A stretch of 64,000 bases of DNA from Planctomycetota bacterium (GTDB lineage: Bacteria > Planctomycetota > UBA1135 > UBA2386), in contig JAGQRB010000304.1 of assembly GCA_020425925.1 (NCBI GenBank), forward strand, positions 5,243-69,242, written 5' to 3'. Each line of letters begins with the position of its first letter. The first letter of the stretch is position 1. The notes beneath the pieces are model-generated. The model saw only the letters and a list, made by a program, of their open reading frames with translations. It did not search any database and was not told the origin of the DNA. The translations under genes and the position numbers were made by a program. Shown here one piece after another: positions 2-28,833 of the stretch.

Positions 2-2110
2 GCGAGTTTCGGCGGCACGTCGGGCGCGACGCCGATGTGCGCCGGCCACAACGCGCTCGCGATCCAGATGTACACCGACTTCCTGTTCGGCAACTCGCCG
101 ACGGTGCCGGGCGGCACCCGGTTCCAGAACCGTCCGCTGGCGCAGACGCTCAAGACGATCATGATCGCGAGCGCGCAGCAGTACGCGTTCACCGGTGCGA
201 GCACCGACAACCGCCGCGAGCACCAGGGCTGGGGCTTCCCGAGCCTGCAGCGGCTCTACGACACTCGCAACCGCATGTTCATCGTGCCCGAGGACCAGCC
301 GCTGCTGCAGGGTCAGACCGACAGCTACACGATCGCGGTCGCGGCCGGTGAGCCCGAGCTCAAGGTGTCGATGTCGTTCGTCGATCCGGCGGGCAACCCG
401 GCGGCGTCGCAGGCGGCGATCAACGACCTGACGCTGCGCCTGACCTCGCCCGGCGGAACGGTCTACTGGGGCAACAACGGCCTGTCGGCCGGCAACTACT
501 CGACGGCCGGCGGCAGCGCCAACACGATCGACACCGTCGAGAACGTGTTCGTGCAGAACCCACAGGCCGGCAACTGGACGGTCGACGTCATCGCGACGCT
601 CGTCGCGCAGGATGCCCACGTCGCCACCGGCGCGGTCGACGCGACCTATGCGCTGACGGTCTTCGGCGGCGTCGAGAGCGCCGCGCCGGCCGTCTGCGCG
701 CGCTACGTGCCCGACAGCAACCCGACGGCCGGCGGCTGCAACGTGATCCCGTTCGGCACCGCGATGAACGCCGCGCTGACCTCGCTGTTCGCCGCCAACA
801 ACGGTGGGTCGACCGGTGGTTGCGTCTACTTCGACATCACCGTCACCAACCAGATCACGATCGAGTCGATCGACGTCAACACGTCGGTCAGCGGCTCGGC
901 GATCGCGATGGAGGTCTATCTGACCCAGCCCGGCGGGACCTACGTCGGCAACCAGACCAACGCCGGCGCGTGGGATTCCGTCGGTCTCGCGAACGGCACC
1001 GCTGCCGGCAGCAACAACCAGTCGAACCTGGTGCTCGCGCAGCCGTTGACGATCCGTCCGGGTAGCTACGGCATGGCGTTCCGGGCCGTGAACTTCAACC
1101 ACCGCTACACCAACGGCACGGGCAGCAACCAGAGCTACTCGAACGCCGACATCGCGCTGCAGTTCGGCAGCGCCACCAACACGCCGTTCTCGGGTTCGGT
1201 GTACGACCCGCGCGTCGCGAACGTCGAGCTCAACTACGCCGTGCCCTCGACGACGACGTGGCGCAACCAGCGCTACCAGACCATCATGACGTCGGCGCAG
1301 CTCGGCGCTGCCGGCAGCATCTCGAGCGTCTCGTTCGCCCCCTGCGGCAGCGGCACGCACGCGAGCGAGAGCCTGCGGATCACGATGTCGCACGTGCCGG
1401 CCGGCTGGAGCCTGTCGAACACGTTCGCGAACAACCTGCCGTCGCCCGTGACCGTGCTGAACATGGCGCCGCACGCGTTCCGCTACCAGCAGAACCAGTG
1501 GGGAGCGGTCGGACTTCAGACGCCGTTCGCCTACAACGGTACCAGTGACCTCGTCATCGAGGTGATCTCGACCGGCAACAAGCCGTTCGAGGACGCCGGC
1601 AGCACCGCGTTCCGCACCGGCTCGGTGAATCGTGTCTACGCCTTCGGCTGGAGCGGTTCGCCGCCGGCGACCGGCACGGTCGGCAGCTCGTCCGCGCTCA
1701 AGATGCGCGTCGAGTTCGGCTGCGCCAACCTGCAGCTCTACGGCACCGGCTGCGGCGGGCTGCGGCTGTCGGCGAGCGGTTCGCCCGTGCTCGGCGGCAG
1801 CTACTCGGTCACCGCGAGCGGCGGTGCGCCGAGCACGACGATCTGGCTCTACACCGGTGCCCTCACCGGGCAGCCGTTCGACTACCACCCGTACGGCTAC
1901 ACCAACTGCTTCGGTTGGCAGGGCTTCTCGAGCGTGAACTCGACGACGACCGATGCCGCCGGCAACGCGACCGTCAACGTCGCCGTGCCGAACAACACCG
2001 CGTTGATCGGTGCGCTCAGCGGCTCGCAGTTCCTGCAGAGCAACCCGAACGTCGCGGGCAGCTTCGGCTTCTCGAACGCCGCGCGGGTCGTGACCGGCCT
2101 GCTGCCGTAG
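2..2110 (+). CDS. S8 (subtilisin/kexin-like) serine peptidase, 5'-truncated at the window edge. Carries a proprotein-convertase-type P-domain, lectin/jelly-roll-like modules and the recurrent C-terminal tail.
   Basis: The frame is open from nt 2. ASFGGTSGATPMCAG is the G-T-S-x-A-x-P catalytic-Ser motif of S8 peptidases. AINDLTLRLTSPGGTVYWGNNG...GNWTVDVIA fits the P-domain pattern. Third codon positions are strongly G/C. The last ~131 aa (about 1715-2107) are the shared tail. Confidence 0.85.
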   Translation, partial: ASFGGTSGATPMCAGHNALAIQMYTDFLFGNSPTVPGGTRFQNRPLAQTLKTIMIASAQQYAFTGASTDNRREHQGWGFPSLQRLYDTRNRMFIVPEDQPLLQGQTDSYTIAVAAGEPELKVSMSFVDPAGNPAASQAAINDLTLRLTSPGGTVYWGNNGLSAGNYSTAGGSANTIDTVENVFVQNPQAGNWTVDVIATLVAQDAHVATGAVDATYALTVFGGVESAAPAVCARYVPDSNPTAGGCNVIPFGTAMNAALTSLFAANNGGSTGGCVYFDITVTNQITIESIDVNTSVSGSAIAMEVYLTQPGGTYVGNQTNAGAWDSVGLANGTAAGSNNQSNLVLAQPLTIRPGSYGMAFRAVNFNHRYTNGTGSNQSYSNADIALQFGSATNTPFSGSVYDPRVANVELNYAVPSTTTWRNQRYQTIMTSAQLGAAGSISSVSFAPCGSGTHASESLRITMSHVPAGWSLSNTFANNLPSPVTVLNMAPHAFRYQQNQWGAVGLQTPFAYNGTSDLVIEVISTGNKPFEDAGSTAFRTGSVNRVYAFGWSGSPPATGTVGSSSALKMRVEFGCANLQLYGTGCGGLRLSASGSPVLGGSYSVTASGGAPSTTIWLYTGALTGQPFDYHPYGYTNCFGWQGFSSVNSTTTDAAGNATVNVAVPNNTALIGALSGSQFLQSNPNVAGSFGFSNAARVVTGLLP

Positions 2111-2310
2111 CGCGCGGCGCGGTCGAAACGCTGTCCGGGCCGTGCCGTTGTGCCAAATCCGCGATTCTCGCGTCGGCGCATCGGCATCCCGGACAGCGAC
2201 TTGCAGCGATTGCGAAAAGCCGGCGGCGACTCGCTCCGGAATCCGCCTCGGGGTTCGAGGTCGGCATGTGGCCGACGCGAATCCCGACGAGTTCCGAGCG
2301 AGACAGACCG

Positions 2311-4197
2311 ATGAGCCTTTCGACCAACCCGTTCCGTTCCTGCTGCCTGACCGCTGCGTTGTTCGCCGCGGCTCCGCTCGCCGCGCAGATGGAGATCACC
2401 TGCGGCGGCTACGTGCTGACGGACAGCAACAGCGTCCGCCTGCTCGATCCGCAAGGCGGCACGGCGTTCCATCTCGTCGCCGGCAGCTTCCCGTACGCGA
2501 CGCTGTCGGCGGTCGGACCGCGCATCGTCGTGACCGAGTCGGCCGGCGTGCGCATCCTCGACCGCAGCGGCGCGCTGGTGGGCGCGCTGATCGCGAAGCT
2601 CGGGAGCTTCCAGAGCGTCGCGCTCGGTGACGACCGCATCGTGGTGATCGACGACGACCGCGTCCGGATCTTCGACCTCGACGGTGCGGCGATCGGCGCG
2701 CCGATCCAGAAGACCGGCACGCAGCGCCAGAGCGTCGAGGTCGGCGGTGGCCGCGTGATCGTCATCGACACCGACCGGGTGCGCATCTTCGATCGCGACG
2801 GCCTGCCGATCGGGGCGCCGATCCCCAACACGGGTCAGTTCAAGCAACGCGTGCAGGTCGCCGGCGACCGCATCGTCGTGACCGACGACAACCGGGTGCA
2901 GATCTTCGACAAGGACGGCCTGCCGAAGGGCGCGCCGATCACGAAGACCGGTACGAACCGCCAGACCGTGATCATCGACGGCGATCGGATCATCGTGATC
3001 GACGACGACCGCGTCCGCATCTTCGACAAGGACGGCTTCCCGCAGGGGGCACCGATCACGAAGACCGGCACGTCGCGGCAGCAGGTCAAGATCGACGGCG
3101 ATCGCATCATCGTGATCGACACCGACCGCGTCCGGGTCTTCGACAAGAACGGGTTCCCGATCGGGGCACCGGTGACCAACACCGGCACCCACCCGCAGAC
3201 CGTCGAGATCACCAAGGACCGAATCATCATCACCGACGACAACCGCACCGAGATCTTCGACCGCGGCATGGTGCCCCAGGGTGCACCGATTGCGAAGACC
3301 GGCACCGACCGCCAGATCGTCGTCGTCTCGGACGACGCGGTGGTCGTGATCGATCAGGATCGCACCCGGATCTTCGACAAGAACGGTCTGGCCCAGGGCG
3401 CGCCGATCCTCAAGACCGGTTGGGACACGCAGCGCGTTCGCATCGACGGCAACCGCATCCTCGTCACCGACACCGATCAGGTCCGCGTCTTCGACCTGAG
3501 CGGCAATCCGATCGGCGCGCCGATCCCGGTCACGCAGGTCGACGAGTACGACGTGCTGCTGTTCCCGACCTGCTTCACGATCGTCGACAACTTCAGCACG
3601 GTGAAGATCTACGACCGCGACGCGCAGCTGCTCGGCAACCCGATCCCGGTCGGTCTCGGCGTGCAGCACGTGCAGGCGACGGCCGATCGGCTGCTGGTCG
3701 TCGATGACAACCGCGTTCGGCAGTTCGACATGCTCGGCCAGCAGATCGGCAGCGCGGTGTTCACGGCGGGCGATCCGGAGGCCCGGCCGCTGTGCTTCGC
3801 AGCGGGCTCGCTCGAGTACTACGGCCCCGCCTGCGGCTCGGCGCAGCAGTCGGCCTACGGCGAACCGATCGTCGGCAGCACCGTGCACTACGAGTTGCTC
3901 GCCGCACCCGCGAGTGCGCTCGCGATGATGAGCATCGGCTTCGGGCGCTTGCCGAGCCCGCTCGATCTCGGCCCCTACGGCGCGCCCGGCTGCCTGGTGC
4001 AGAGTGATACACCGATCGTGTATCCGCTGGTGACCGACACCGAGGGTTACGGCAGCATCGGCGTCGGGCTGCCGGTCGACCAGGTCTGGCTCGGCGTGCA
4101 GTTCACGACCCAGTTCTTCGCCATCGATCCGCCCGCAAACGCACTCGGCGTCGCCGTGACGGGCGCGATCGAGACGACGATCGGCCAGGGCGTCTGA
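2311..4197 (+). CDS. Secreted NHL-like repeat beta-propeller protein with about 12 repeats of ~40 aa and the recurrent C-terminal tail
   Basis: ATG at 2311 gives the signal peptide MSLSTNPFRSCCLTAALFAAAPLAAQ. Very regular repeats follow: DRIIVIDDDRVRIFDKDGfPxGAPItKTGTxRQxV. The tail is at about 3811-4194. The upstream part of ORF 1915..4197 is Arg/Ala-rich junk that overlaps the previous gene. Confidence 0.85.
   Translation: MSLSTNPFRSCCLTAALFAAAPLAAQMEITCGGYVLTDSNSVRLLDPQGGTAFHLVAGSFPYATLSAVGPRIVVTESAGVRILDRSGALVGALIAKLGSFQSVALGDDRIVVIDDDRVRIFDLDGAAIGAPIQKTGTQRQSVEVGGGRVIVIDTDRVRIFDRDGLPIGAPIPNTGQFKQRVQVAGDRIVVTDDNRVQIFDKDGLPKGAPITKTGTNRQTVIIDGDRIIVIDDDRVRIFDKDGFPQGAPITKTGTSRQQVKIDGDRIIVIDTDRVRVFDKNGFPIGAPVTNTGTHPQTVEITKDRIIITDDNRTEIFDRGMVPQGAPIAKTGTDRQIVVVSDDAVVVIDQDRTRIFDKNGLAQGAPILKTGWDTQRVRIDGNRILVTDTDQVRVFDLSGNPIGAPIPVTQVDEYDVLLFPTCFTIVDNFSTVKIYDRDAQLLGNPIPVGLGVQHVQATADRLLVVDDNRVRQFDMLGQQIGSAVFTAGDPEARPLCFAAGSLEYYGPACGSAQQSAYGEPIVGSTVHYELLAAPASALAMMSIGFGRLPSPLDLGPYGAPGCLVQSDTPIVYPLVTDTEGYGSIGVGLPVDQVWLGVQFTTQFFAIDPPANALGVAVTGAIETTIGQGV
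2410..3790 (+). repeat. Tandem in-frame coding repeats, about 12 units of ~117-123 bp (NHL-like blades)
   Basis: The motif (V/I)xDxxxxR(V/I)x(I/V)FDxxGxxxGAPI recurs about every 40 aa in the translated sequence. Confidence 0.8.
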
Positions 4198-4246
4198 CCC
4201 TGGCCTTTGGGGGCGTCGTCCCGGACTTCGCTCGGCCGTATCGGGA

Positions 4247-4268
4247 GTGACCGTATCTTCACGGTCAC
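4247..4268. promoter_or_regulatory. Perfect 8-bp inverted repeat GTGACCGT-N6-ACGGTCAC in the intergenic region. Could be an operator or a weak terminator hairpin.
   Basis: Read directly from the sequence. It lies 50 bp after the stop at 4197 and 83 bp before the ATG at 4351. There is no T-tract. Confidence 0.25.
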
Positions 4269-4350
4269 GGTGTCGCGCCCGCGACCCCGGCTCGCGTTCG
4301 GCCGTTACTCTTCGATGCCCCAAACACCCCTCGAGGCTTCCGGAATCCCA

Positions 4351-6102
4351 ATGCAGCTTTCTTTCGCTCTTCGTTCCTTTGCGTCGCTCGCCGGCGGCGC
4401 CCTGCTCTTGCCCTGCGCGTTTGCGCAGGACGGTTGCACCCCGCCGACCGGCGTGTCGGTCGATTCGATCCCCGGCGGTGCGCCCGTCACCGTGATCTAC
4501 ACCAACTTCCCCGGCGCGCCGACGAACGTCGTGCCGGGTCTCGGCGTCCCGTTCGCGCCGGGCACGTCGACGGTGACCTTCGTGCGCCCGTGGATCTCGG
4601 CGGACGATTCACAGTTCGCGCTCGAGATCGATGCCGACACCGGCAGCACGAGCGACGACAACTGCCTGCTGCTCAACGGCGCGCTGCTGATGCAGGAAGG
4701 CACCCAGGCGCCGTGGGGCGCCCCCGGCGAGCTCATCGGCACGATCGATGATTCGTACGGCATCAACAACGCCGGTGACATCCTGATCGGCAACAACACG
4801 ACCGCGGCCGCGAACGACGACTACGTCGTGCTGATCTCGGGCGGCGTGTTCACCGCGCTCGCGCAGGAGGGTGGTCTCGTCGATCCGTTCCTGCCGTCGC
4901 TCGCCGGCGCCACCTGGGACGATGCGCTCGACACCTGCCGGCTCGCGACGACCGGGCCGCTGTTCAACGGCGACGGCATCGACGGTCTCGCCGGCGGCAC
5001 CATCGGCGACGAGATCCAGCTGATCCCCGGCGGCTTCCTGCGCGAGTCCTTCGACGCGCCGATCGGTCTCGTGACCCCGGCGCTGTGGGAGAACTTCACG
5101 TTCGAGGAGTTCTACGTCTCGGCCGACGGCTCGACCTACGTGCTGATGGGCGACACCGACGGCGCGACGACCGAGGACCAGATCCTCACCGTCAACAACG
5201 TCGTCGTGCTGCAGGAGGGCTTTGCGATCGCCGGCGGCCCGTTCATCGAGCCGATCGACTCGTCGGGCATCGTGCAGGCGTGGCTCGACCACGGCGGCAA
5301 CTGGTACGCGCGCGGCAACAACGACGTCACCGAGCAGGACTGGGTCGTGCGCAACGGCGCGGTCGTCGCGTTCTCGGACGGCAGTGACCCGATCGTCCCC
5401 GGTGCGACCGAGTACTGGAGCGACACCGACTTCTCCGACTGCTTCTTCGGCTTCGATGGCAACAGCAGCGGCGCCTACATCATCGCCGGCGTGACCGATG
5501 CACCGTCGGATGCCAACGGTGTCATCGTCTACGACGACGGCACGGGCAACCGCATGGTCGTCGTCCGCGAGAACGATCCGGTCGACATCGACGGCGACGG
5601 CTTCTACGACGACGACCTCTACTTCAACACGTTCGGCAACGACGACGAGCTGCTGCTCGAGAGCGGCGACGTGATCTTCACCGCGACGCTGCGCAACGGC
5701 GCCGGCGCGACGGTCTGCACCGGCATCTTCCGCGTCACGCCGGGCGGTGCGAGCTGCGCGCTGCGCAACGGCACAGGCATCAACAACCTCGGCTTCGACT
5801 GCTCGACGCTGCCGGTCCTCGGCTCGACGTTCACGGTCGACGTCCCGGTCGGCTCGACCACCGCGCTGACCTTCGCGATGACCGCGTTCGCGCCGATGGC
5901 GCCGCTGCCGCTGCTGACCGGCGAGGTCCTGATCGACACCAACGCGATCAGCATCCCGGGCTTCGGCGCGCACAACATCCCGCTGCCGGCGAACCCGTCG
6001 TTCACGGGCCTGCCGTTCTTCATGCAGGGCTTCCGCTTCGACACCGCCGGCGGCGGCACGATCGTGTTCTACAACGCGATCGACGCGATCGTCGGCAACT
6101 GA
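4351..6102 (+). CDS. Secreted hypothetical protein with the recurrent C-terminal tail
   Basis: ATG at 4351 gives the signal peptide MQLSFALRSFASLAGGALLLPCAFAQ. GC3 bias is consistent with coding. The tail is at about 5755-6099 (FDCSTLPVLGSTFTVDV...IPLPANPSFTGLPFFMQGFRFD...AIVGN). Confidence 0.8.
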   Translation: MQLSFALRSFASLAGGALLLPCAFAQDGCTPPTGVSVDSIPGGAPVTVIYTNFPGAPTNVVPGLGVPFAPGTSTVTFVRPWISADDSQFALEIDADTGSTSDDNCLLLNGALLMQEGTQAPWGAPGELIGTIDDSYGINNAGDILIGNNTTAAANDDYVVLISGGVFTALAQEGGLVDPFLPSLAGATWDDALDTCRLATTGPLFNGDGIDGLAGGTIGDEIQLIPGGFLRESFDAPIGLVTPALWENFTFEEFYVSADGSTYVLMGDTDGATTEDQILTVNNVVVLQEGFAIAGGPFIEPIDSSGIVQAWLDHGGNWYARGNNDVTEQDWVVRNGAVVAFSDGSDPIVPGATEYWSDTDFSDCFFGFDGNSSGAYIIAGVTDAPSDANGVIVYDDGTGNRMVVVRENDPVDIDGDGFYDDDLYFNTFGNDDELLLESGDVIFTATLRNGAGATVCTGIFRVTPGGASCALRNGTGINNLGFDCSTLPVLGSTFTVDVPVGSTTALTFAMTAFAPMAPLPLLTGEVLIDTNAISIPGFGAHNIPLPANPSFTGLPFFMQGFRFDTAGGGTIVFYNAIDAIVGN

Positions 6103-6132
6103 CCGACGCGCGCGGCGCTATTCTCGCCGGCG

Positions 6133-7170
6133 ATGCACGACTGCCACATCTTCACGGCGCTCTGCCTCGCCGGCGCCGCGAGCGCGCAGGGTGGAATCAC
6201 GACCCAATGGACCGCCCTGACGCCGATCGTCGCGCAGTGGGTCAATGCACCCGCGAACGCCCCGAACCCGATCGTCAGCCATCCGGCCGGGCCGTTGCCG
6301 AACGCTCCGCTCGAGGTCGAGGTGTTCGTCGGGACGGGCGGCAGCAACTCGGCTTCGTTCTCGGTGACGCCTCTGCCGCCGCTGCCGGGAGTGGTCGGGC
6401 GGACCGCGCTGCGGGCCGACGCCTACGTGCCGTACTACGAACAGACGCGCACGAGCGCGGACCTGCTGCTACGGATCGCCGGCCCGACTGCCGGCGTCGG
6501 GTCGCTCGAACTCCAGATCGTGTCGCTCGGTGACTTCCCGGACCCGAACGCGCTGCGCGTCGACGTCGGCAACGACGGCACGTTCGAGCTGCGCTCGAAC
6601 CCGACCGCCGGCAGCATCACGGCGCTCGAGCGCCACGCATGGTTCGCGTGGGACTTCGCCAACGGTCCACTCGAGGTTCGCGTCGTGCACGACGTCTACA
6701 GCAGGCCCGCGCCGCAGTTCTACGAACTCGTCACGGCCTTCCGACCGTGGGTCGCCGGCGTCGACACGATCGGTGACGACTGTGGCAGCGAAGCGCCGGA
6801 GCCCGGCTCGACCGGCTACACGACGTGCTACCACCTCGCGGCGCTGCCGCCGTTCCGACCCGAGGACGCGCTGACGCTGCGCGCGAGCGGCATCGGTTAC
6901 TACGGCGCGTTCCTGCTGAGCGATCGCCCGGACACCGTCACGTTCCAGCTCGGGGGATCCCCCTCGCCGGCGTGCGATCTGCTCGACGATGTCGTGTTCA
7001 CCTGCCTCGGCGGGATCTCCGGTGCTCGGACGACGGCATGGGTGCCGCTCGCGACCGAGTGGATCGCGCCGCTGCCGGTGCTGCCACCCGGCCTCGACAT
7101 CCACGTCCAGCATGCGAGCCTGGTGCTGCCGTACCTCGGCCTCACCAACCGCGTGCACATCCGGACCTGA
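6133..7170 (+). CDS. Secreted hypothetical protein. The C-terminus is only a degenerate version of the shared tail.
   Basis: Signal peptide MHDCHIFTALCLAGAASAQ and coding-like composition. No recognisable catalytic motifs. Confidence 0.7.
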   Translation: MHDCHIFTALCLAGAASAQGGITTQWTALTPIVAQWVNAPANAPNPIVSHPAGPLPNAPLEVEVFVGTGGSNSASFSVTPLPPLPGVVGRTALRADAYVPYYEQTRTSADLLLRIAGPTAGVGSLELQIVSLGDFPDPNALRVDVGNDGTFELRSNPTAGSITALERHAWFAWDFANGPLEVRVVHDVYSRPAPQFYELVTAFRPWVAGVDTIGDDCGSEAPEPGSTGYTTCYHLAALPPFRPEDALTLRASGIGYYGAFLLSDRPDTVTFQLGGSPSPACDLLDDVVFTCLGGISGARTTAWVPLATEWIAPLPVLPPGLDIHVQHASLVLPYLGLTNRVHIRT

Positions 7171-8283
7171 TCAGCGCACGACGCCGCCGGCGAGTGAGCT
7201 CGTGCGGATCGGCGCGCTGAGGCCGGCGAAACCCTGGACCCAGACGCCGCGGTCGACGAGCGCCGAGACCAGCGGGATGCTCCAGCTCGCGCTGGCGTTG
7301 CCGGTGGCGTCGGTGAACAGCATGCCGACCGGCTGGCAGCCGCCGCCGAGCAGGTTCGGCTGCTCGAACAGGACGCCCGGTTGGAAGCCGATCAGGAGAT
7401 TCGCGAACACGCCGATCGGCTCGTTCGGCTCGCTGAGGAACGCGAGGTCGAGCGTGCCGCCGGGCGTCATCGGCGCGGTGCGGCGGATGCCGAGCAGCGG
7501 ACCGCTCGGCAGTGCGCCGCAGTTCGGGGTCAACGTCGTGCGCGCCTGCCGGCCGTGCGCACTCGCGGCCTCGATCGGGCAGACCGCGGGGTCGCTGATC
7601 ACGTTCGAGTCGCTGAGCCAGATCGTGCTCTCGGCGTCGGCGATCAACCCGGGTCGGCTCGTCGGACCGTTGCCGCCCTGGATCGTGCAGCCGCTGGCCT
7701 GGAACGTGCCCACGCGCACATCGACACCGACGCTGACGCCGTTGTAGCCGCCGGTCGCGCTGGTGCCCTCGAACGTCGAGCCGATCGCGCTGACGAACGC
7801 GTGGTCGACGACCAGCGCGGCGTTCGGGTTGATGATCGCCGGACCGCGGCCGAGGACCATGCAGTCCTGCATGTGACACCGTCCTCCGACCGCGACCAGG
7901 ATGTCGCCGTTCGAGACGAACGTGCACTGATCGAGGGTCACCGACCCGTTCGTGATCGTGAAGCCGCGGTACTCGAGACCGATGACGTGGATCGCCTTGC
8001 CGGCCGGCGCGGCGATCCCGCTCAGGAACGGCCCGTTCTCGAGCACGACCGTGCCCGGTGTCAGCGCACGCACCGTCAGCGCCTTGTTGATCGAGACGCG
8101 CGGGTAGGTGCCCGGCGCGACATGCACGATGTCACCGTCGACCGCGGCGGCGACGGCGTCGCCGATCGTCGCGAACCCGCCGGGGCCGACCAGGTGGGTC
8201 GTCTGGGCGCCGGCCGGCGCGACCAGCAGGCCGGCGATCAGAGGCGTGACGAGGAGCGCGAGCCGGAGGGGGCGACAGTGCAT
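7171..8283 (-). CDS. Secreted right-handed beta-helix (pectin-lyase-fold-like) protein with the recurrent C-terminal tail
   Basis: ATG at 8283 gives MHCRPLRLALLVTPLIAGLLVAPAGAQ. GDIVHVAPGTY...ITNGSVTLDQCTF...STFEG is a typical beta-helix turn pattern. The tail is at about 7174-7527. The remainder of ORF 7171..9363 is Arg-rich junk antisense to the next gene. Confidence 0.8.
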   Translation of the reverse strand: MHCRPLRLALLVTPLIAGLLVAPAGAQTTHLVGPGGFATIGDAVAAAVDGDIVHVAPGTYPRVSINKALTVRALTPGTVVLENGPFLSGIAAPAGKAIHVIGLEYRGFTITNGSVTLDQCTFVSNGDILVAVGGRCHMQDCMVLGRGPAIINPNAALVVDHAFVSAIGSTFEGTSATGGYNGVSVGVDVRVGTFQASGCTIQGGNGPTSRPGLIADAESTIWLSDSNVISDPAVCPIEAASAHGRQARTTLTPNCGALPSGPLLGIRRTAPMTPGGTLDLAFLSEPNEPIGVFANLLIGFQPGVLFEQPNLLGGGCQPVGMLFTDATGNASASWSIPLVSALVDRGVWVQGFAGLSAPIRTSSLAGGVVR

Positions 8284-8315
8284 GGTCGGATCGTAGCTCC
8301 TCCCGGTTCCGGGGA

Positions 8316-10343
8316 TCAGTCCCCGAGCACGAGCTTGAGGCCCTGGCTCAGGGCGTAGCCGTTCGGCGCGAGGGCGTCGAGCGCGAACGCCTGCGCGAAG
8401 AGCTCGACGCCGCGGAAGGATTCCCACTGCGGCAGCGGCTGCGGGAAGTGCGCGAAGCCGCTGCCGTTCGTGATGCCGACGAGTGCGGCGATCCCCGGCG
8501 CGAGCAGCAGTTCGCAGCCCGATCCGGTCGGTGTGACGCCGCCGAAGGACAAGCCGGTGATGCAGAGGCTGTTCGGCGCCGTGCCGACGACGTCGAGGCC
8601 GAAGGCGGGTTCGCCGAGCACCGGCTCGCCGAACGTGCCGAGCCGCGGCACACGATTCGTCGGGCCGCAGCCCTGACCGAACCGCTCGGCACGCGCGACG
8701 CGGTCGGTGAACGTCATCACGTCGGTTGCATCGGCGAGGACGACGCCGCGACGGCGGTCGAAGACGATGCCGTTGGACGCGAAGTTGGTCGGGGTGGCCT
8801 GGCGCGCGAGCCACTGGTTGCCGTCCCACTCCCACATCGCCAGCAGGCCCTTCATGACCACGCGCTGCGCGACGTTGTCGTAGGTGAGTTCGGGCGTGCC
8901 CTGCGGCAACGCGCCGCGCTGCGTCCAGACGCCGCCGGCGTACTCCCAGTGCTGCGAACCGAGGCCGAGCACGAGCACGTCGCGGAGCTCGTCGTAGACC
9001 AGCGAGCGAGGGTCGAGGCTGTCGGGCGATGTGGTCGCGATCTGGTGCCACGAGGTGCCGTCCCACTCCCAGTGATCGTGGAGCGGGGTGTAGGCGTTCG
9101 GGCCGAAGCCGCCGACGAGCACGGCGCGGCCGCGGCCACGGTCGAACGCGAAGCCGGCGCGCGCGCGAGCCGGTGGACCGCTCGGCAGCTGTTGCCAATC
9201 GGTGCCGTTCCAGCTCCAGAAGTCGTTGCGCCAGCCGGTTCCGGGGTTCAGGCCGCCGAACATCAGCACGCGCTCCGCGATCGGGTCGTAGGTCAGCGCC
9301 GTGTCGCTGCGCGTCGGCGGCACCGTCGCGGGCAGCGGCAGGTGCCACCTGGCGCCGTCCCACTCGGCGGTCTGCGTCGCCGGCTGACCGCTCGCCGGGA
9401 ACTGGACGCGGACGAATCGACCGCGGGCCTCGTCGAACGTGCCGATCCGGTCGCCGAATCCGGGCCCGGCCAGGAACGGCCGCTCGACCGCGACGATCCA
9501 GCTACTGCCGTCGAACTCGCGGAGCTCGTCTCGGAACGAGCCGATCGCGACGAGCCGGCCGCGATCCGGATCGAACACGACCGCGTAACCGAAGTTGTCG
9601 AGCGGGCCGGGTCGCGGCACCCAGCTGCTGCCGTCGAACTCGAGCGCGAAGGAGTTCTGGAATGCCGCGACGCGACCTCGGGTAGGGTCGAAGACGAGCG
9701 TGGGGGCCGCCAGCAGCGGGTGGGCTGCGCTGTGCTGGAGCCAGACTCCGCCCGAGTACTCCCATGACCCGTAGGTGAGAGTTCGGAAGTCGCGGCCGTA
9801 GAGCAGCATCTTGTTGCGGATCGGATCGAACGCCATCGAACGGCCGTGGCCGATGATCCCCGGCGTCGCGGTCGCGATCTGTTGCCAGGAGGTGCCGTCG
9901 TATTCGAACGTGTGGTCGGCGTCGGTCGCGACGAGGACCCCGCGGTTGCTGTCGTAGGCGGCGATAGCCAGCGCCGGCGCGCCGACGAGCGGCTGGAGCT
10001 CGACGCCGTCCCACGCCTCCGAGTAGATCCCGAGCAGCAGCGTCCGCTGCTGCGGCGGGAACCAGAGCACCGTGTTGAAGCTGCCCCGGCCGGGGCCCCT
10101 CGCGAGGTCCGCGCCGCGGAACTCGTAGAGTCCGCCGTCGGCCGCGACCATCACGAGCCGGCCGCGGGCCGCGTCGTGCGTCATGCGGTACTGGCCGCTT
10201 CCGGCCGGGGAATCGAGCGAGGCGTAGTTGTTGCGCTCCGCCAACCAGACGGATTGACTCGGGAGCCCGGCGGTTGCCAGGAGGGCGGGCAGGCCGAAGG
10301 ACAGCGCGGCGAGCGCTGCAGCGGCCAGGGTGCGGTGGTCCAT
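8316..10343 (-). CDS. Secreted Kelch-like (galactose-oxidase-type) beta-propeller protein with the recurrent C-terminal tail
   Basis: Signal peptide MDHRTLAAAALAALSFGLPALLATAGLPSQ. At least 9 repeats have the W-E-[WYF]-D-G-x-x-W signature (FEYDGTSWQQI, WEWDGTSWHQI, WEWDGNQWLAR and others). The tail is at about 8319-8687 (FGQGCGP...GSGCELLL...FAQAFALD...LVLGD). Confidence 0.85.
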   Translation of the reverse strand: MDHRTLAAAALAALSFGLPALLATAGLPSQSVWLAERNNYASLDSPAGSGQYRMTHDAARGRLVMVAADGGLYEFRGADLARGPGRGSFNTVLWFPPQQRTLLLGIYSEAWDGVELQPLVGAPALAIAAYDSNRGVLVATDADHTFEYDGTSWQQIATATPGIIGHGRSMAFDPIRNKMLLYGRDFRTLTYGSWEYSGGVWLQHSAAHPLLAAPTLVFDPTRGRVAAFQNSFALEFDGSSWVPRPGPLDNFGYAVVFDPDRGRLVAIGSFRDELREFDGSSWIVAVERPFLAGPGFGDRIGTFDEARGRFVRVQFPASGQPATQTAEWDGARWHLPLPATVPPTRSDTALTYDPIAERVLMFGGLNPGTGWRNDFWSWNGTDWQQLPSGPPARARAGFAFDRGRGRAVLVGGFGPNAYTPLHDHWEWDGTSWHQIATTSPDSLDPRSLVYDELRDVLVLGLGSQHWEYAGGVWTQRGALPQGTPELTYDNVAQRVVMKGLLAMWEWDGNQWLARQATPTNFASNGIVFDRRRGVVLADATDVMTFTDRVARAERFGQGCGPTNRVPRLGTFGEPVLGEPAFGLDVVGTAPNSLCITGLSFGGVTPTGSGCELLLAPGIAALVGITNGSGFAHFPQPLPQWESFRGVELFAQAFALDALAPNGYALSQGLKLVLGD

Positions 10344-10406
10344 GCCGTGTCTTGCCGCGAGCGACCCGGATCGTGGCGGCGGAGTTCGGTTTTCCCACGC
10401 CGCCGC

Positions 10407-11843
10407 CTACGGCAGCACGGTCAGCTGGACTCCCGCGGATGCACCGAGCTGCAGTGCTGCGTCGAGGCTGAAGGCCTGCCCGAACACCGGCAGGTCGACG
10501 AGGCCGGGGTCGTTCGGCAGCGGCAACGGCACGTCCGTGGCGGCTGCCGGCACCAGCAGCCGGCTGACGAGCGGGTCGACCAGGACGTCGAGGCCCGCGA
10601 TCGACAGCGAAACCCGCTGGACCCCGAGCACGATGCCGGCGAACAGCGGCGGCGTGCTCGCCGTGAGCCGCAGCGCGAATGCGGCGTTGCCGATGCGCGG
10701 TAGCCCGGCCGCGCTCGGCGCCACCTGCCATTCGAGCACCAGCGGGCTCGGACCGCTGCGGTCGCCGTAGACCTCGGGGTCGGGATCGATGTCGAGACCG
10801 CTCGCGACGCCCCAGCCGCCGGCCGGCGCGGTCACCGCCAACGACAGCGTGCCGGTCGACGGGCTCGCCGGCGACAGCCGGTAGACGTCGCGCTCGCTGC
10901 AGCCCGTGCCGGCGACGACGAACGCGTCGCCGGTGGCGGGCTCGATGCGGATGCACTCGGCGTAGAACAGCGCGTTCAGCTGCGGGAACGCAGTCGCGCC
11001 CGCGGTCGCCGGATCGACGTGCAGCAGCTGAGCGCGGCCGTCGGACACCGCATAGCTGGTTGCGAGCAGCGTGCCGTCGTGCTGCAGTGCGAGGCCGGTG
11101 ACGAGCTCGCCCGGCATGTCGACGAGATGGACCGGCGCGCCGCCCTGCGGGAAGTCGACGCGGTAGATCGCGCTGCTCGACTGCGCGAAGACACCGAGCC
11201 AGGCGACGCCGCGGGCGGCATCGAACGCGAGCGCGTTGGTGTCGCCGGGCAGCGTCGTCATCGGCACCGGGAGCAGCGCGTTCGGATCGGTCGGCGGCAG
11301 GCTCGGGTCGAGCACCGCCAGCAGGGTGTTGGTCAGCGGTTCCCCGGCCTGGAACGTCAATGGATCGACCGCGAGCAGCACCCGGCCGTCGGGCAGCGCC
11401 TCGGCTTGCGGCAGACCCGCGGCGCCCCACGCCCCCGGTCCGACGATGCCGGCGTCGTAGCGCGTCACCGCGGTGACGTTCAGGCCGGCGAGATCGAGCA
11501 CGTAGATCGGCATCTGCTGTCCGATCGTGCCGTCGCCCCACGCGTTGGTGACGACTCGGCTGCGGTGTGGCAGCCGCAGTCCGAAGTCGGCGCCGTGGAT
11601 GAACGTGCTGGTCGTGCCATTGCCGAGCACGTCGGCCGGCACGCCGGTGAGCGCCTGCACGGCGCCGCTCCGGGGGTCGACCTCGTAGAGTCCGCCGGGC
11701 CCCGGCACCGCGCACGGCAGGGTTCCGGTGAAGCGGTAGCAGCCCGCGAGCAGCGCGCCGTCGCGGATCTGGGCACGCAAGGTGGGCGCGGCGGCGGCCG
11801 CGGCGAGGGCGAGAAGGGTGCTGGGGATCGGGTGCATGTCCAC
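10407..11843 (-). CDS. Secreted hypothetical protein, probably a beta-propeller, with the recurrent C-terminal tail in a Cys-less variant
   Basis: Signal peptide MDMHPIPSTLLALAAAAAAPTLRAQ. The tail is at about 10410-10769 (LPRIGNAAFALRL...VPLPLPNDPGLVDLPVFGQAFSLD...LTVLP). Confidence 0.8.
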   Translation of the reverse strand: MDMHPIPSTLLALAAAAAAPTLRAQIRDGALLAGCYRFTGTLPCAVPGPGGLYEVDPRSGAVQALTGVPADVLGNGTTSTFIHGADFGLRLPHRSRVVTNAWGDGTIGQQMPIYVLDLAGLNVTAVTRYDAGIVGPGAWGAAGLPQAEALPDGRVLLAVDPLTFQAGEPLTNTLLAVLDPSLPPTDPNALLPVPMTTLPGDTNALAFDAARGVAWLGVFAQSSSAIYRVDFPQGGAPVHLVDMPGELVTGLALQHDGTLLATSYAVSDGRAQLLHVDPATAGATAFPQLNALFYAECIRIEPATGDAFVVAGTGCSERDVYRLSPASPSTGTLSLAVTAPAGGWGVASGLDIDPDPEVYGDRSGPSPLVLEWQVAPSAAGLPRIGNAAFALRLTASTPPLFAGIVLGVQRVSLSIAGLDVLVDPLVSRLLVPAAATDVPLPLPNDPGLVDLPVFGQAFSLDAALQLGASAGVQLTVLP

Positions 11844-21499: not shown

Positions 21500-21668
21500 A
21501 GCTTTCGAACATGGTCCGGGTCACGGACGACGGCGCGGCACCGCGCCGCACCCGACCAGAGCTGGCGCGGCCCGGCGGCGAAGCGGAGGACGAATTCCGC
21601 GAGTTTCTCGTCGGCTGGCGCCGATTCGGGTCTCGAGCTGCGGTTGCCCTCCTGCCGATAGCAAGGGC

Positions 21669-24317: not shown

Positions 24318-24364
<47 letters not shown>

Positions 24365-24370: not shown

Positions 24371-27300
24371 TTGAGTACGCCCGGCGCTGCGCAGGCGCCG
24401 GTCGTTGGCAACGGGGTCGCGGGTAGTTTGCCTGGCACCCAGCGCTGGATCATCTTCCTGAAGGACAGGGGCTACTCGCTGAACCAGGCCCTGCAGGCGA
24501 TCCGGAACGAGACGACGGTTGCGGGGCGCCGAGCCAGGCTGGCGACCCTGCGCCAACTCGCGAGCACGGATCAAAGCGTGATCGCACAGACCGTTGTCGG
24601 CTTGGGTGGCGTTGTGGACCGGAATCTATGGATGGCGAACGCGATCTCGGTGCACTTGCCGCGGGCCCGTCTGGCGCAGATCGCCATGGATCCGCGAGTC
24701 CGGCGACTCGAGCCGGTCCGAGCCTACCCGTTGGGCGACGTCGACGCTCCGACCGCTTTCTTGGGGTCGGTGCCAATGCCGATCGGCACGTCGACCAACC
24801 AGCACAACCACAACAAGGCGGCCGCCTGGACGATCCTGGGTGAGGGTCAAGGGGACTACAAGGGGGCCGGCGCGCGGATTGCCGTGTTCGACAGTGGCAT
24901 CGACGCCGATGTCGACGGTGCCACGCCGACGGTGGTCGACGACCACCCTGAGTTCCTGAGCACGGGTGGGGTGACGCGGATCGAAGCGTTCCTGCAGGGG
25001 CAGGACGTCAATATGACGACGCGGCACGCTGACGTGAACATCCTCCAGACGTCGGCTCCCTCACCTTACGTCGGGTTGACTCCGCCACATGGTTTTCGAC
25101 AATCGAGTCACCACACCGTAGCTGGCCATGGTACAGCGATGGCAGCCATCGCCGCGGGCTCCACCGATGGCCATGCTCCGGAGGCTGCCTTGATCGATGT
25201 GGCCATTACGAGCTATCCGTTCCTGGGTGGGTCTGCCCTATTCCGGTGGGAGACTCTCGACGTGGGCTATCTCGGGGGCATCGAGCGGTTGACCGAGTTC
25301 ATCCTCGAGAACAAGCCGGAGCAGCAGGCCACCGCCTACGTGCACGTGATTACGATCTCCTCGGGTGGCCCGCCGTCTCCCGACAGCGAGGTTGCCAAGG
25401 CACTCGACTCGCTTGCACGCTGGGAGGACATCCTGATCATCGCGAATGCCGGCAATGAGGCCGATACGACGCAAGCGAGTCACGGCTTCTACCATGGCGT
25501 CGCCGTCGGGGCGGTTCACGCCCGCGCGCCAGGCGCCGGCGCCACGACGAACTTCTCCTTCCTGCCGATGTTCTGGTCGAGCCGTGGTCCGCTGTTCGGC
25601 GATCCCGCCCGGTTGTATCCAGACCTGTGTGCGACGGGGGCGGGCCCGGGGTCGATCACCAACGGCCCGGTCGGTGCGGCTCGCCGCTTCGTCTACCCCG
25701 GGGACTTCTTCAACGTGGAAGCGCGGGGCTCCTGCCTCTTGATGCCGGGGATCGACGTCGGCGACCTGCAGTCGCAGACGCCGGCCAACAACACCTCGCC
25801 CGTGCGCTACAACTTCGGCACGAGCGAGGCCGCGGCGCAGGTTGCCGGGGCGGCTGCGCTCTACCGCGGCAAGCGATCGAGCCTGCCGAACTACGCGACG
25901 GCGGAGGAGACCCGCGCGGCTCTGCTGCTGAACGTGCTCGGAACCTTCGCGACGAAGTCCGGGACTTCGGCCGACCCTGCCGGGCAACACTGGTTCACGA
26001 ACCGCAACACGTACGGCGTGGGCTACGTTCGCGACGATCTGCTCGCCGAGTTCGCGGTACGGGATGCCGGCATCGTACCGTTGGCCGAAGTCGTCACTCT
26101 GAGCGAGACGACGACCGAGACGACGGTCTCGTACGGCCCGTTGGCCGCTGGCGAACGATACGGGGTGGTCGCCTGCTGGCGGCGCTACTTCGACGTCGAG
26201 AGCGATCAGGTGCCGCCGCCTGAGCTCGAGCTCCCGAACGTCGATCTGGTCGTGGAGTACAACGGCAACGTGATCGCAAGGTCTCAATCGACGGCCAACA
26301 GCTACGAGCGCGCGGTGTTCGAGGCACCTGCCGGCTCGTCGGGCAACAGCGCGACGCTGCGCGTCCGCCTCGCGAGCACGCCGCGCCCGGAGCAGGGTGT
26401 GGTCGTCCAGATCGTCGCCCGCAAGTTTGCTGCTGACATCGATCCTGACACCACGGAAGATCCAGTTCTCGCCTCGACGGGCGAACTCGCCGAGCTGCCG
26501 GCGGGCGCGGGCTGCACGATGCAGGCGGAGGAATGGACGGTCGCGCGGGTCGTTCCAGAGGCCTACGCCAACGCGGACGCTTGGGGTAGCGCGCCATTCC
26601 AAGTCTCGTGGAACCCGACGGGGACCTGGTACCAGCACCGCGGCTACAGTCGTGGCTTCGACCTGACGCCGTCGGGAGGCAATGGCGCGACCTACAAGTG
26701 GGTGCGCTTCTACTACGCGAGCACGGAAGTTGGCGGTGCGATGACCATCGACGGCCTCGCATTCCGCTCCTCGACGCCGCTCGATGCTCCGTCCGATATC
26801 CCCGTCGACATCCACATCGCGCTGGGGAACTTCCCAGCGAACCAGAATCCGCTGAGCTCCTACGTCACGCAAGGGACCCTCACGAGGATCCCCGATTCGG
26901 CTGGAGACTTGAGGCGAGATCACTTTCCGGTCCAACTACGCTTCGCCAACCCGTTTTCGTATCCGGGCGGGAGCCCGCTGAATATCTGGATCGTGGCGCC
27001 GACGAGCCAGATCGGCAGCAAGTTCGAAGTCGACGGCATGGACGATGGCGGGGGTGGCTACCTGTCGTATCGGCCCGTGGACAATTCTGGTCAGCTCACC
27101 TACCTGACCCAGCCGGGTGTAGCGCCGATGCTCGGCCTGCTTCAGAAGTCCTCGCCCGGCCCGAGGGTGGCTACGATTGCCGTCAGCGGCGAGCCATGGA
27201 GCGGCAACGGCGCGGTCGATTGCGAGCTGATGTGGCGGCTCGACGCGGCGTCGAACACGGCGTACGTCATGAGCCTCGGCTTCGTCGCAGCCTCGCCTCA

Positions 27301-27502
27301 GCTCGTTGGATCCTGCAACTATTGGCTGCAACCCGGGTCGGAGGCGACGCTCGCGATTGCGACGACGGATTCGGCGGGGACGGCCGTCGGATACTTGACG
27401 ATCCCACCCGCCTGGGTGAACAGCGAGCTGGGTCTCCAAGCCGTGTTCGCGCCGAGCCTGTTCTCGAATGCGATGCGCCTGACGATCGGAGGTGGGCTGT
27501 GA
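24371..27502 (+). CDS. S8 subtilase with an I9-like propeptide and the recurrent C-terminal tail. The start codon and signal peptide are unresolved (see findings).
   Basis: The catalytic triad motifs are AVFDSGID (Asp), HGTAMAA (His) and GTSEAAAQVAGAAALY (Ser), with ANAGNE for the oxyanion Asn. The tail is at about 27188-27499. The frame is open from 24284, but its only in-frame start is TTG 24371 and there is no signal peptide. Confidence 0.88.
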   Translation: MSTPGAAQAPVVGNGVAGSLPGTQRWIIFLKDRGYSLNQALQAIRNETTVAGRRARLATLRQLASTDQSVIAQTVVGLGGVVDRNLWMANAISVHLPRARLAQIAMDPRVRRLEPVRAYPLGDVDAPTAFLGSVPMPIGTSTNQHNHNKAAAWTILGEGQGDYKGAGARIAVFDSGIDADVDGATPTVVDDHPEFLSTGGVTRIEAFLQGQDVNMTTRHADVNILQTSAPSPYVGLTPPHGFRQSSHHTVAGHGTAMAAIAAGSTDGHAPEAALIDVAITSYPFLGGSALFRWETLDVGYLGGIERLTEFILENKPEQQATAYVHVITISSGGPPSPDSEVAKALDSLARWEDILIIANAGNEADTTQASHGFYHGVAVGAVHARAPGAGATTNFSFLPMFWSSRGPLFGDPARLYPDLCATGAGPGSITNGPVGAARRFVYPGDFFNVEARGSCLLMPGIDVGDLQSQTPANNTSPVRYNFGTSEAAAQVAGAAALYRGKRSSLPNYATAEETRAALLLNVLGTFATKSGTSADPAGQHWFTNRNTYGVGYVRDDLLAEFAVRDAGIVPLAEVVTLSETTTETTVSYGPLAAGERYGVVACWRRYFDVESDQVPPPELELPNVDLVVEYNGNVIARSQSTANSYERAVFEAPAGSSGNSATLRVRLASTPRPEQGVVVQIVARKFAADIDPDTTEDPVLASTGELAELPAGAGCTMQAEEWTVARVVPEAYANADAWGSAPFQVSWNPTGTWYQHRGYSRGFDLTPSGGNGATYKWVRFYYASTEVGGAMTIDGLAFRSSTPLDAPSDIPVDIHIALGNFPANQNPLSSYVTQGTLTRIPDSAGDLRRDHFPVQLRFANPFSYPGGSPLNIWIVAPTSQIGSKFEVDGMDDGGGGYLSYRPVDNSGQLTYLTQPGVAPMLGLLQKSSPGPRVATIAVSGEPWSGNGAVDCELMWRLDAASNTAYVMSLGFVAASPQLVGSCNYWLQPGSEATLAIATTDSAGTAVGYLTIPPAWVNSELGLQAVFAPSLFSNAMRLTIGGGL

Positions 27503-28824
27503 TCTCTCGAGTGGCAAGCTGGTTCTCGGCGGTCGGCTTCGCTTCGGTCGGGCTTCCGGCGCAATTGACGCAGTCGTCGCTGGCAGGGCCGACAACCCTC
27601 CCGGCATACTACGACGATGTCCGCGACGTCCTCGTGTGCTGGGGAGTCAGCGGCAGCACCGTCAGTGGAATGTGGGAGTTCGACGGCGCGAACTGGGCGT
27701 TCCTAACAACGTCCTTCAACCCGCTTCATTCGGGCAAGTCCGTTGCCTTCGACCGAGGTCGCGGCGTCCTGGTCGTCGTCGACCAGTTCTATGGGGACAC
27801 GTGGGAGTGGGACGGAGCGAACCTCGTAAACGTCGGTCCGGCACCGGTCGTGCCGCTGGCCAACCAATGGCTGCCCAACAGTTACAACTTCCACGTCGCG
27901 TACCATGAAACGCGGCAGAGGGTCATGTTGTTCAGCGAGTCCTTCTACGAATGGGATGGAGCCTCCTGGCGCCCGGTCCTGTCGGCGAACACGCCGCCCG
28001 TGATCGCGACCCCGTTTGGTCCGACGTTCTACCGCTACGGCGGCATGACCTACGATGCGCGGCTCGACAAGATGGTGCTGTGCGGACGCATTCACTCGTT
28101 GCCGAACAGTCCGGTGGAAACCAAGTCCTGGGAGTGGGACCCCGCCACCGGCTGGGTCGAGTATCCGGCATCCGGTCCACTGACTGGCGGCGCCGTGTGG
28201 TTCGACGAGCACCGCGGCGTGGTGCTGAAGGCCAGGACGATCAACAGCAACGGCTACCACGGCGTGTACTACCGTGACACCTCCCGCGCCTGGGTGCAGC
28301 TGCAGTCGACGGACTTCGACGTCTTCTCAGGCTGCTACGACCGCAACGCGAACCGCTTCTTCTTCGCGACGCAGACCGGAATCGGCATCCTCCACGATGT
28401 GCATCCGGCCGCCTTCGGGTCGCACGCGCCGGGCTGCACACCCGCGAGTCCGTGGAACCTGACGCTTTCGCAGCCCGGCACCCGCGCATGGATCGGCCGG
28501 ACCTTCGCCGTCGAGGTCGGCACTCCGTCGACGCTGGCGTTGCTCGCGATGGGGTTCTCCGATCAGCTCTTCCAGTCCGTGCAGTTGCCGTTCGACCTCA
28601 CGGCCGCAGGCCTGACCGGCTGCAGCCTCAATGTCGCGCCCGATGCCATCGCATTCGGCGCCGGCAGCGCGGGCAGCGCCGCATTCGCGCTCGCGATCCC
28701 GAACGGCGTCGGCCTGCTCGGGACGACGTTCTTCCAGCAGGGGTTTGCGCTCGCACCGGGCGCGAACCCGGCCGGTCTGGTCGCGACCGACTCGGTCCGC
28801 GCGACCGTGGGGCGTTTCCAATAG
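27499..28824 (+). CDS. Secreted Kelch-like beta-propeller protein with the recurrent C-terminal tail
   Basis: GTG at 27499 overlaps the upstream TGA (GTGA). Signal peptide VISRVASWFSAVGFASVGLPAQ. Repeats include MWEFDGANW, TWEWDGANL, FYEWDGASW and SWEWDPATGW. The tail is at about 28414-28821. Confidence 0.85.
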   Translation: MISRVASWFSAVGFASVGLPAQLTQSSLAGPTTLPAYYDDVRDVLVCWGVSGSTVSGMWEFDGANWAFLTTSFNPLHSGKSVAFDRGRGVLVVVDQFYGDTWEWDGANLVNVGPAPVVPLANQWLPNSYNFHVAYHETRQRVMLFSESFYEWDGASWRPVLSANTPPVIATPFGPTFYRYGGMTYDARLDKMVLCGRIHSLPNSPVETKSWEWDPATGWVEYPASGPLTGGAVWFDEHRGVVLKARTINSNGYHGVYYRDTSRAWVQLQSTDFDVFSGCYDRNANRFFFATQTGIGILHDVHPAAFGSHAPGCTPASPWNLTLSQPGTRAWIGRTFAVEVGTPSTLALLAMGFSDQLFQSVQLPFDLTAAGLTGCSLNVAPDAIAFGAGSAGSAAFALAIPNGVGLLGTTFFQQGFALAPGANPAGLVATDSVRATVGRFQ

Positions 28825-28833
28825 GCTGCCGCG

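Follow-up and report, generated by a model that had tools for sequence, protein, structure and literature searches.

A shared terminal domain on exoproteins is a well-known general kind of element. The type A C-terminal domain (CTD) of the type IX secretion system (T9SS) of Bacteroidota (TIGR04183/PF18962) is a beta-sandwich of ca. 80–100 aa with about seven strands and no transmembrane helix, which sits at the extreme C-terminus of diverse Sec-exported passengers, has many paralogs per genome and is restricted to one lineage. The PEP-CTERM, LPXTG, GlyGly-CTERM and MYXO-CTERM signals are also common C-terminal features of many exported proteins of one genome, and consist of a motif of ca. 25–35 aa with a transmembrane helix and a basic tail. 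Dockerins (ca. 70 aa, Ca-binding and helical) and the helical S-layer homology (SLH) domains are modular handles on unrelated secreted proteins, mostly C-terminal and sometimes N-terminal, with one presumed shared partner, while small beta-sandwiches such as PPC (PF04151) and carbohydrate-binding modules (CBMs) occur at the C-terminus of secreted enzymes. Here we analyze a module of ca. 130 residues, which shares with the T9SS CTD its type of fold, position, diversity of passengers, number of paralogs and restriction to one lineage, and with the others its place at the end of exported proteins, and that closes six of seven consecutive genes at the start of a 64-kb stretch of planctomycete DNA with a G+C content of ca. 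70 % (contig JAGQRB010000304.1; the whole stretch is hereafter the window).

Copies of the module in the window

Positions 2..11843 contain seven back-to-back open reading frames (ORFs), g1 to g7, in two convergent runs, all annotated by NCBI as ‘hypothetical protein’ (locus tags of the contig from KDE27_09855 onwards; its proteins MCA8949795 to MCA8949814). The original prediction, made from the sequence of the window, was that six of these genes end in homologous modules, and the envelopes obtained with profile hidden Markov models (HMMs) fall within ca. 40 bases of the boundaries that it gave. Pairwise BLAST similarity among the tails is weak yet non-random (E values of 8e-9 for g1-g2, 1e-3 for g6-g7 and 5e-3 for g3-g7). 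An external profile, built from 125 modules of other organisms only and scored against the 514 six-frame ORFs of the window, recovers the copies, whereas the best E values for reversed and shuffled controls were 0.28 and 0.8; the module thus represents real homology and not a compositional likeness. An HMM of the six tails found additional C-terminal matches in 35259..36272 (E 1e-9), 27499..28824 (E 2e-9) and 29017..30111 (E 9e-6), as well as borderline matches at the ends of 24371..27502 and 40597..43056. The genes of the initial run and the other module genes are the following, with E values from the external profile unless indicated:

2..2110, + strand: g1, truncated at the left end of the window, with its N-terminus outside it; module copy 1 at 1715-2107 (E 5e-22), with both conserved Cys
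2311..4197, + strand: g2, signal peptide, probable propeller of 39-aa repeats, then module copy 2 at 3799-4194 (E 1e-31), the copy modeled with AlphaFold2
4315..6102, + strand: g3, with an alternative start at 4351; signal peptide, passenger without assignment, then module copy 3 at 5740-6099 (E 2e-9), shortened and with neither conserved Cys
6133..7170, + strand: g4, signal-peptide protein without detectable module
7171..8283, - strand: g5, signal peptide, probable right-handed beta-helix, then module copy 4 at 7174-7560 (E 2e-3), divergent, with both Cys and in register at the C-terminus
8316..10343, - strand: g6 (NCBI MCA8949797.1), signal peptide, Kelch-like propeller, then module copy 5 at 8319-8708 (E 1e-18)
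10407..11843, - strand: g7, signal peptide, passenger without assignment (weak ScyD/ScyE-like match), then module copy 6 at 10410-10796 (E 3e-8), with neither conserved Cys
24371..27502, + strand: second S8 peptidase (Pfam Peptidase_S8, 2e-17), with a probable divergent module at ca. 27167-27499
27499..28824, + strand: second Kelch-like gene, module at 28408-28821 (E 7e-41), the best-scoring copy of the window
29017..30111, + strand: signal-peptide protein with a partial module (C-terminal half) at 29809-30108 (E 5e-5; window profile, 3e-13)
35259..36272, + strand: 337-aa protein with signal peptide, a beta domain of ca. 190 aa and a module at 35859-36269 (E 1e-27)
40597..43056, + strand: large beta-helix protein (Pfam Beta_helix, 1e-18), with a probable divergent module at ca. 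42730-43053

Copy 4 reaches an E value of 4e-39 with the window profile, but was itself in the training set of that profile. The tails of 24371..27502 and 40597..43056 align in register with the module by hhalign (E 2.4e-4 in both cases, to the C-terminus in the former); with the external profile, the first is not significant and the second has an E value of 6e-3. In total, the window holds nine solid and two probable divergent copies, every one C-terminal, which mark about one fifth of its genes. The six copies predicted for the seven-gene run are there, yet the module is not confined to that run, with nine to 11 copies in the window and more than 12,000 protein clusters in the family (see below). 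The degenerate trace that had been proposed for g4 could not be recovered: HMM searches returned nothing at E<10, and hhalign gave a probability of 0.4 %, at a position that is not C-terminal.

The consensus of 171 aligned domains, g.gC.g..p.l...g.P.lG ... G.s...lP.dL...G.pGC.l ... G.a.....iPn...L.G..f..Q....d..aN..G...Sn......G, agrees with the list of recurrent motifs in the original prediction. We provisionally define the family by the succession G-x-G-C ... P-x-L-G ... L-P-x-D-L-x3-G-x-P-G-C ... I-P-N-x3-L-x-G ... Q ... D-x2-A-N-x2-G-x3-S-N-x6-G, in a terminal position on a signal-peptide protein; nine window copies show it, probably together with two more, and g4 does not. For g1, g2 and the second Kelch-like gene, of which close relatives were sampled, the modules are 46–62 % identical to a module from another genome, the highest value being that of the second Kelch module with the module of homolog P0020 (62 %), whereas no window module is more than 32 % identical to any neighbor. 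This contrast led us to reject the view that the cluster arose by recent tandem duplication; judged from these identities, the seven genes belong to a larger group of old paralogs that encode putative surface proteins.

The N-termini of g2 to g7 resemble signal peptides and end in A-x-A or AQ. As had been predicted, there is neither a terminal transmembrane helix nor a basic tail: the last 60 residues of g2 to g7 contain no hydrophobic segment (19-residue Kyte-Doolittle average, KD19, >1.6). Among the window proteins, the maximum KD19 in the last 60 aa was 0.74–1.49, with zero to three K/R in the last 10 residues and no sorting motif.

The passenger labels of the original prediction fared unequally. 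The assignment of g1 to the S8 peptidases holds: it opens, at the window start, in the subtilase Ser motif GTSGATP, and its ortholog P0023, a protein of 1301 aa with a signal peptide and the same motif, is 64 and 51 % identical over two segments that span all of g1. This match over its whole length indicates that g1 is the C-terminal half (ca. 700 aa) of an S8 peptidase of ca. 1300 aa. From the Ser motif, g1 continues with a P-domain-like region (residues 105–200 show a weak PPC or P-domain match, away from the module), two beta domains of ca. 190 aa without assignment, and the module. The other labels are less firm: the Kelch match of g6 has a Pfam E value of 7e-7 and is yet below the cut-off, the NHL-like propeller of g2 is indicated by weak matches and the 39-aa repeat, and the beta-helix of g5 by a sequence match in PDB to the PL6 lyase AlyGC (E 0.018). 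In g2, a tandem repeat of 117 bp (39 aa) extends over 2610-3261, with 5.6 copies at 73 % DNA identity; the repeats are the probable propeller blades, still recognizable at the DNA level.

Extent and structure of the module family

The extent of the family was assessed by running a profile of the nine copies exhaustively, with HMMER, against 1.84 billion representative proteins, clustered at 50 % identity. At E<=1e-3 this yielded 12,194 clusters, of which 2,420 reached E<=1e-10. Word-index homology searches were nearly empty, with one match for a single tail, six for profile A1 and 14 short matches for profile A3, and the family is thus visible because the exhaustive search was used. The end of the module lies at most six residues from the C-terminus in 156 (94 %) of the 166 module-bearing proteins retrieved, and 95 out of 116 long matches have a signal-peptide-like N-terminus according to a crude heuristic.

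No Pfam-A (2025 copy) or NCBIfam 20.0 model covers the module in the seven window proteins and 60 full-length homologs, and a PDB sequence search with the module gave no match. These libraries include TIGR04183/PF18962 for the T9SS CTD, PEP-CTERM and other CTERM models. The absence of an assigned family, as originally claimed, therefore withstood the comparison with the family libraries and with known structures, where Foldseek returned no specific match. Likewise, we found no earlier description of the domain in literature, of incomplete coverage, on planctomycete C-terminal sorting or secreted domains, choice-of-anchor domains and OM190/UBA1135. The module hence appears to be a large domain family undescribed in the libraries and literature searched.

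AlphaFold2 modeled the g2 module, from an alignment of 46 sequences, with a pLDDT of 96.9 and a pTM of 0.89, as ten beta strands with two short 3-10 turns. In the model of the full-length product of 35259..36272 (337 aa, pLDDT 83.7) there are two all-beta domains, the second of which is the module, with the same all-beta fold. Foldseek searches against PDB and BFVD gave no match at E<=1e-3, and all TM-scores were at most 0.58. The best weak matches were GM2 activator, NPC2, lytic polysaccharide monooxygenases (LPMOs), SoxZ, macroglobulin MG domains and FN3 (TM 0.3–0.58, with high root-mean-square deviation, rmsd); structural matches as a whole were poor (TM 0.2–0.58), with one CBM35 at rank 46 (TM 0.23). 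On the predicted model, the fold is a generic beta-sandwich without a specific solved relative. The ML domains (GM2 activator, NPC2) are the top Foldseek matches in PDB and are beta-cups or sandwiches that contain disulfides and have a size similar to that of the module, but the matches are weak (E 1.8e-3 to 1e-2, TM 0.33–0.41, rmsd 6–13 Å, 11–14 % identity). These TM-scores stay below 0.5 and provide no evidence of homology to ML domains.

Conserved residues are situated mainly in turns and loops (G-x-G-C, P-x-L-G, G-F, L-P-x-D-L...G-A-P-G-C, I-P-N...L-x-G and D-P-x-A-N..G), and an invariant Gln sits in strand 9. Of the 155 external modules, 147 contain the pair of conserved Cys; among the window copies six have both, three have neither (g3, g7 and 29017..30111) and none has only one. 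This conservation and joint loss fit a disulfide, and hence an extracytoplasmic location, and a single disulfide between the two conserved Cys most likely braces the module.

The other beta domain of the 337-aa protein (35259-35858) has ca. 190 aa and is also found in g1 (residues ca. 392–569, window ca. 1175-1708). It is present, too, in many homologs of ca. 330 aa (P0019, P0030, P0032, P0136 and others), and its relatives contain the motif C-N-V-I-P-F-G. AlphaFold2 models it with pLDDT mostly of 85–95, Foldseek found no relative in PDB, and there was no match in Pfam.

These features set the module apart from the described systems. With ca. 130 aa, ten predicted strands and a conserved Cys pair, it differs from the smaller T9SS CTD, and it can also be N-terminal, stand alone or carry a C-terminal extension. 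The original prediction saw no likeness to that domain, and indeed T9SS CTD models gave no match at E<=0.1 in the seven window proteins and none at E<=0.01 in the 60 homologs; besides, the carriers are Planctomycetota, and none of the window proteins scanned was recognized as a T9SS component. A folded module of 130 aa is also unlike the short motifs of PEP-CTERM, LPXTG, GlyGly-CTERM and MYXO-CTERM, for which no NCBIfam match was present in the same two sets of proteins, and no such tail in the window proteins. Similarly, dockerins (PF00404) and SLH domains (PF00395) are helical and unrelated in sequence to this beta-sandwich, with no Pfam match over the module in these sets. PPC and carbohydrate-binding sandwiches differ in that no Pfam model for them matches over the module, whose passengers are mostly neither peptidases nor carbohydrate-active enzymes (CAZymes).

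Passengers, architectures and candidate roles

A census of the 60 homologs with Pfam and NCBIfam identified very diverse passengers: Kelch propellers (12/60), FG-GAP and RCC1; S8 and trypsin peptidases; c7/c3 and decahaem cytochromes; class C beta-lactamase-like proteins; and LamG, PKD, F5/8 type C and DUF4082 domains. One homolog showed a weak match to choice-of-anchor R (E 2e-4), and no glycoside hydrolase or lyase family was found in the Pfam census of these homologs.

The terminal position has exceptions of three sorts, of which the N-terminal and stand-alone ones are rare. In L003, L004, L007, P0034 and P0071, with three architectures, the module directly follows the signal peptide and precedes 370–620 further residues (L003 5776-8205, L004 5320-8208 and L007 5932-7521 for the loci); in P0005, P0007 and P0163, it makes up essentially the whole mature protein; and in L013, L014, L016, L019-L021, L023 and L028, a conserved extension of 33–46 aa comes after it. 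These N-terminal, stand-alone and extended forms disfavor a strict secretion signal with a free C-terminus and favor a docking or anchoring domain.

Several of these variants have features of their own. L003, L004 and P0034 have in common a downstream domain with the motif D-x-C-x-R-x-M-x-P. The post-module extension ends in L-x-L-x-G-x-F-N/Q/Y or similar, without a transmembrane helix, and occurs in four tandem genes in L016 (2891-7819); its residues may form additional strands or constitute another element for recognition. Apparent tandem double modules (P0022, P0037, P0081 and similar) were discarded, as only the short Y/F-G-x-G-C motif repeats after the signal peptide and the intervening domain differs. 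In fact, homologs of ca. 307 aa (P0022, P0037, P0060 and P0081) carry the motif that opens the module, S-Y-x-x-F/Y-G-x-G/A-C-x-G-S, by itself after the signal peptide, followed by a domain that in some of them matches DUF4082; the opening hairpin of the module may be a separable element.

The original prediction considered a sorting, anchoring or secretion tag, or else a ligand-binding module. The terminal position on signal-peptide proteins and the unrelated passengers are in line with this proposal, with the variants above speaking against a strict C-terminal secretion signal. We tentatively favor, with a little less than even confidence, that the module is an autonomous all-beta domain of ca. 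130 residues serving as a common terminal handle, which would dock its passengers to a shared envelope partner for retention or display at the surface. To the same limited degree, it might act like a dockerin, an SLH domain or another cell-surface anchoring module rather than as a cleavable secretion signal, and dockerins and SLH domains would be the closest functional analogy to such a mechanism. The signal peptide would carry the protein across the cytoplasmic membrane, and the module would then fold and oxidize outside the cytoplasm. Its conserved loops (LPxDL...GAPGC, IPN...LxG, DPxAN..G) would bind one shared envelope protein or polymer, and the unrelated passengers, such as propellers, beta-helices, proteases and cytochromes, would thereby be kept or displayed at the cell surface.

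Several points weigh against this proposal. We infer the function of the module from architecture alone, and the disulfide from conservation and co-loss. The top 150 matches are biased towards sequences similar to the window profile, and the architecture frequencies apply to that sample. The extreme C-terminal bias of 94 %, together with the conserved last strand (...G plus zero to three residues), also fits a C-terminal recognition signal. No candidate receptor recurs near module genes when neighbors are clustered across 28 loci and the window, nor is a cohesin-like or polymer partner identifiable in the 28 neighborhoods. Finally, docking to an envelope partner leaves the crossing of the outer membrane by the module proteins without explanation.

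In a somewhat unlikely alternative, the module would be the cargo tag of an undescribed outer-membrane secretion and attachment pathway, recognized in the periplasm by a dedicated translocon in the manner of the T9SS CTD and perhaps cleaved or exchanged for an anchor. The position at the extreme C-terminus in the retrieved matches, with one copy per protein and a conserved final strand, agrees with it, as do the diversity of the cargo, the many paralogs per genome, the restriction to a lineage, and a beta-sandwich without transmembrane helix; moreover, choice-of-anchor R, weakly matched in one homolog, is of a type otherwise paired with sorting tails. It is difficult, however, to reconcile with the N-terminal, stand-alone and extended variants, with the lack of any match to T9SS CTD models or of a CTD structure among the top 50 Foldseek matches in PDB, and with the genes around the modules: the search for a co-occurring apparatus suggested by the original prediction revealed no machinery in the window or recurring among the neighbors at the 28 loci. 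To our knowledge, the T9SS is not known from Planctomycetota. A more specific version, that the module is the cargo-recognition domain of an independently evolved and undescribed export and surface-attachment system, particular to OM190/Saltatorellus-type planctomycetes and routing a large fraction of their surface proteome in analogy to the T9SS of Bacteroidota, we consider unlikely; these bacteria have been reported to change shape and crawl.

Also unlikely, in our view, is a lectin- or CBM-like ligand binder that would aim passengers at an external substrate, such as a polysaccharide, the surface of a particle or prey, or a lipid, instead of at the cell's own envelope. A beta-sandwich of this size with its conserved residues concentrated in loops would suit that role, binding modules typically sit at one or the other end of a protein or stand alone, and the top weak Foldseek matches comprise the lipid-binding ML domains (GM2A, NPC2), LPMOs and one CBM35. 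Nevertheless, none of these structural matches reaches E<=1e-3, no Pfam CBM or lectin model matches over the module, and the preference for the C-terminus is stronger than expected for CBMs. Most passengers in the 60 homologs, among which there is no glycoside hydrolase or lyase, are binding scaffolds or other proteins that are not CAZymes. That many passengers are binding scaffolds, proteases and extracellular-type cytochromes, and not CAZymes, favors both docking and an export tag. Least probable, and indeed improbable, is a purely structural element, such as a stalk or spacer, an oligomerization element or a PPC-like domain for folding or stability, without any role in targeting. Some secreted peptidases are known to have beta-sandwich domains at the C-terminus that assist folding or secretion, and generic Ig-, FN3- and MG-like sandwiches dominate the weak structural matches. 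Such elements, though, are usually repeated or internal, whereas the module is single and terminal, shows no PPC match, and is also found on proteins that are not enzymes and by itself as a secreted protein; additionally, the strong conservation of its loop motifs across more than 100 distant members argues for a specific interaction.

Hosts and genomic neighborhoods

One genome for each GTDB species was scanned with a pattern from the narrow alignment A4, which samples one subfamily and gives no census; the scan found 26 loci, all in metagenome-assembled genomes (MAGs), and 24 of these are named as Planctomycetota or a planctomycete subgroup. Among the MAGs that carry the module, Kalu_18-Q3-R12-55_BAT3C.357 (L004; JADJWQ, 9.0 Mb) is classified as p__Planctomycetota; c__UBA1135; o__UBA2386, corresponding to SILVA OM190 (PMC8012365 supplement). 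The UBA1135/OM190 clade holds the cultured, shape-shifting Saltatorellus, Engelhardtia and Rohdeia, with a G+C content of 67–70.5 % (bioRxiv 10.1101/817700). At least the UBA1135/OM190 (Saltatorellus-type) class belongs to the host lineage within the Planctomycetota.

In other genomes, too, module genes frequently lie in clusters, with four in tandem in L016, three in L022 and four within 20 kb of L002. Within the window, three module genes in a row (S8, Kelch-like and hypothetical; 24371-30111) form a second run that partly mirrors the first cluster in composition. At 27499-27502, the stop codon of its S8 gene and the GTG start of its Kelch-like gene overlap. A perfect (CT)x19.5 tract at 24323-24361 lies just upstream of the called TTG start of the S8 gene (24371). 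Translation from an ATG at 24318 would give M-R-(S-L)n-VAALSTPGAAQA, which makes a good signal peptide. In the assembly this reading is offset by one base from the downstream ORF, and losing one CT unit or gaining two would bring both into frame; the tract is either a slipped-strand, phase-variable switch or a length error of the assembly. In the first cluster, the stop codons of the convergent genes g4 and g5 abut at 7170/7171 (7168-7173) with zero intergenic bases, leaving no room for separate terminators.

The only recurrent neighbors of module genes are Ser/Thr kinases (five loci) and extracytoplasmic function (ECF) sigma factors (four loci), which are common in the phylum, so that their recurrence probably reflects phylum-typical gene content. 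Kinases fused to a formylglycine-generating enzyme (FGE)-sulfatase domain or to tetratricopeptide (TPR) repeats are found near module genes at 36288-38873 (-) and 18311-20818 (-) of the window and in four other loci, among them L001 (6648-9665); the window also contains an ECF sigma factor at 20825-21520 (-). According to Pfam, the rest of the window encodes kinases, the ECF sigma factor, a PrsW protease, a molybdopterin oxidoreductase, CarboxypepD_reg proteins, a sortilin/BNR protein and a TIR protein, and no component of a secretion system was matched among the proteins scanned in these 64 kb. The TIR protein (61972-63486, -; 504 aa, with an N-terminal TIR domain, Pfam TIR_2, 6.5e-21) is possibly related to defense and separate from the module.

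The envelope and the protein-sorting routes of Planctomycetota are poorly understood, and a shared terminal handle offers a concrete entry point for experiments, which may be feasible with Saltatorellus, Engelhardtia or Rohdeia, members of the clade of one carrier MAG, if these strains carry the module. Were the module part of an independent export and attachment system, a large share of the surface proteome, including adhesin-like propellers, proteases and extracellular cytochromes, would be routed by a single tag. An HMM for the family would annotate thousands of ‘hypothetical proteins’ and delimit the likely surface proteome of a planctomycete lineage that branches deeply and is mostly uncultured.

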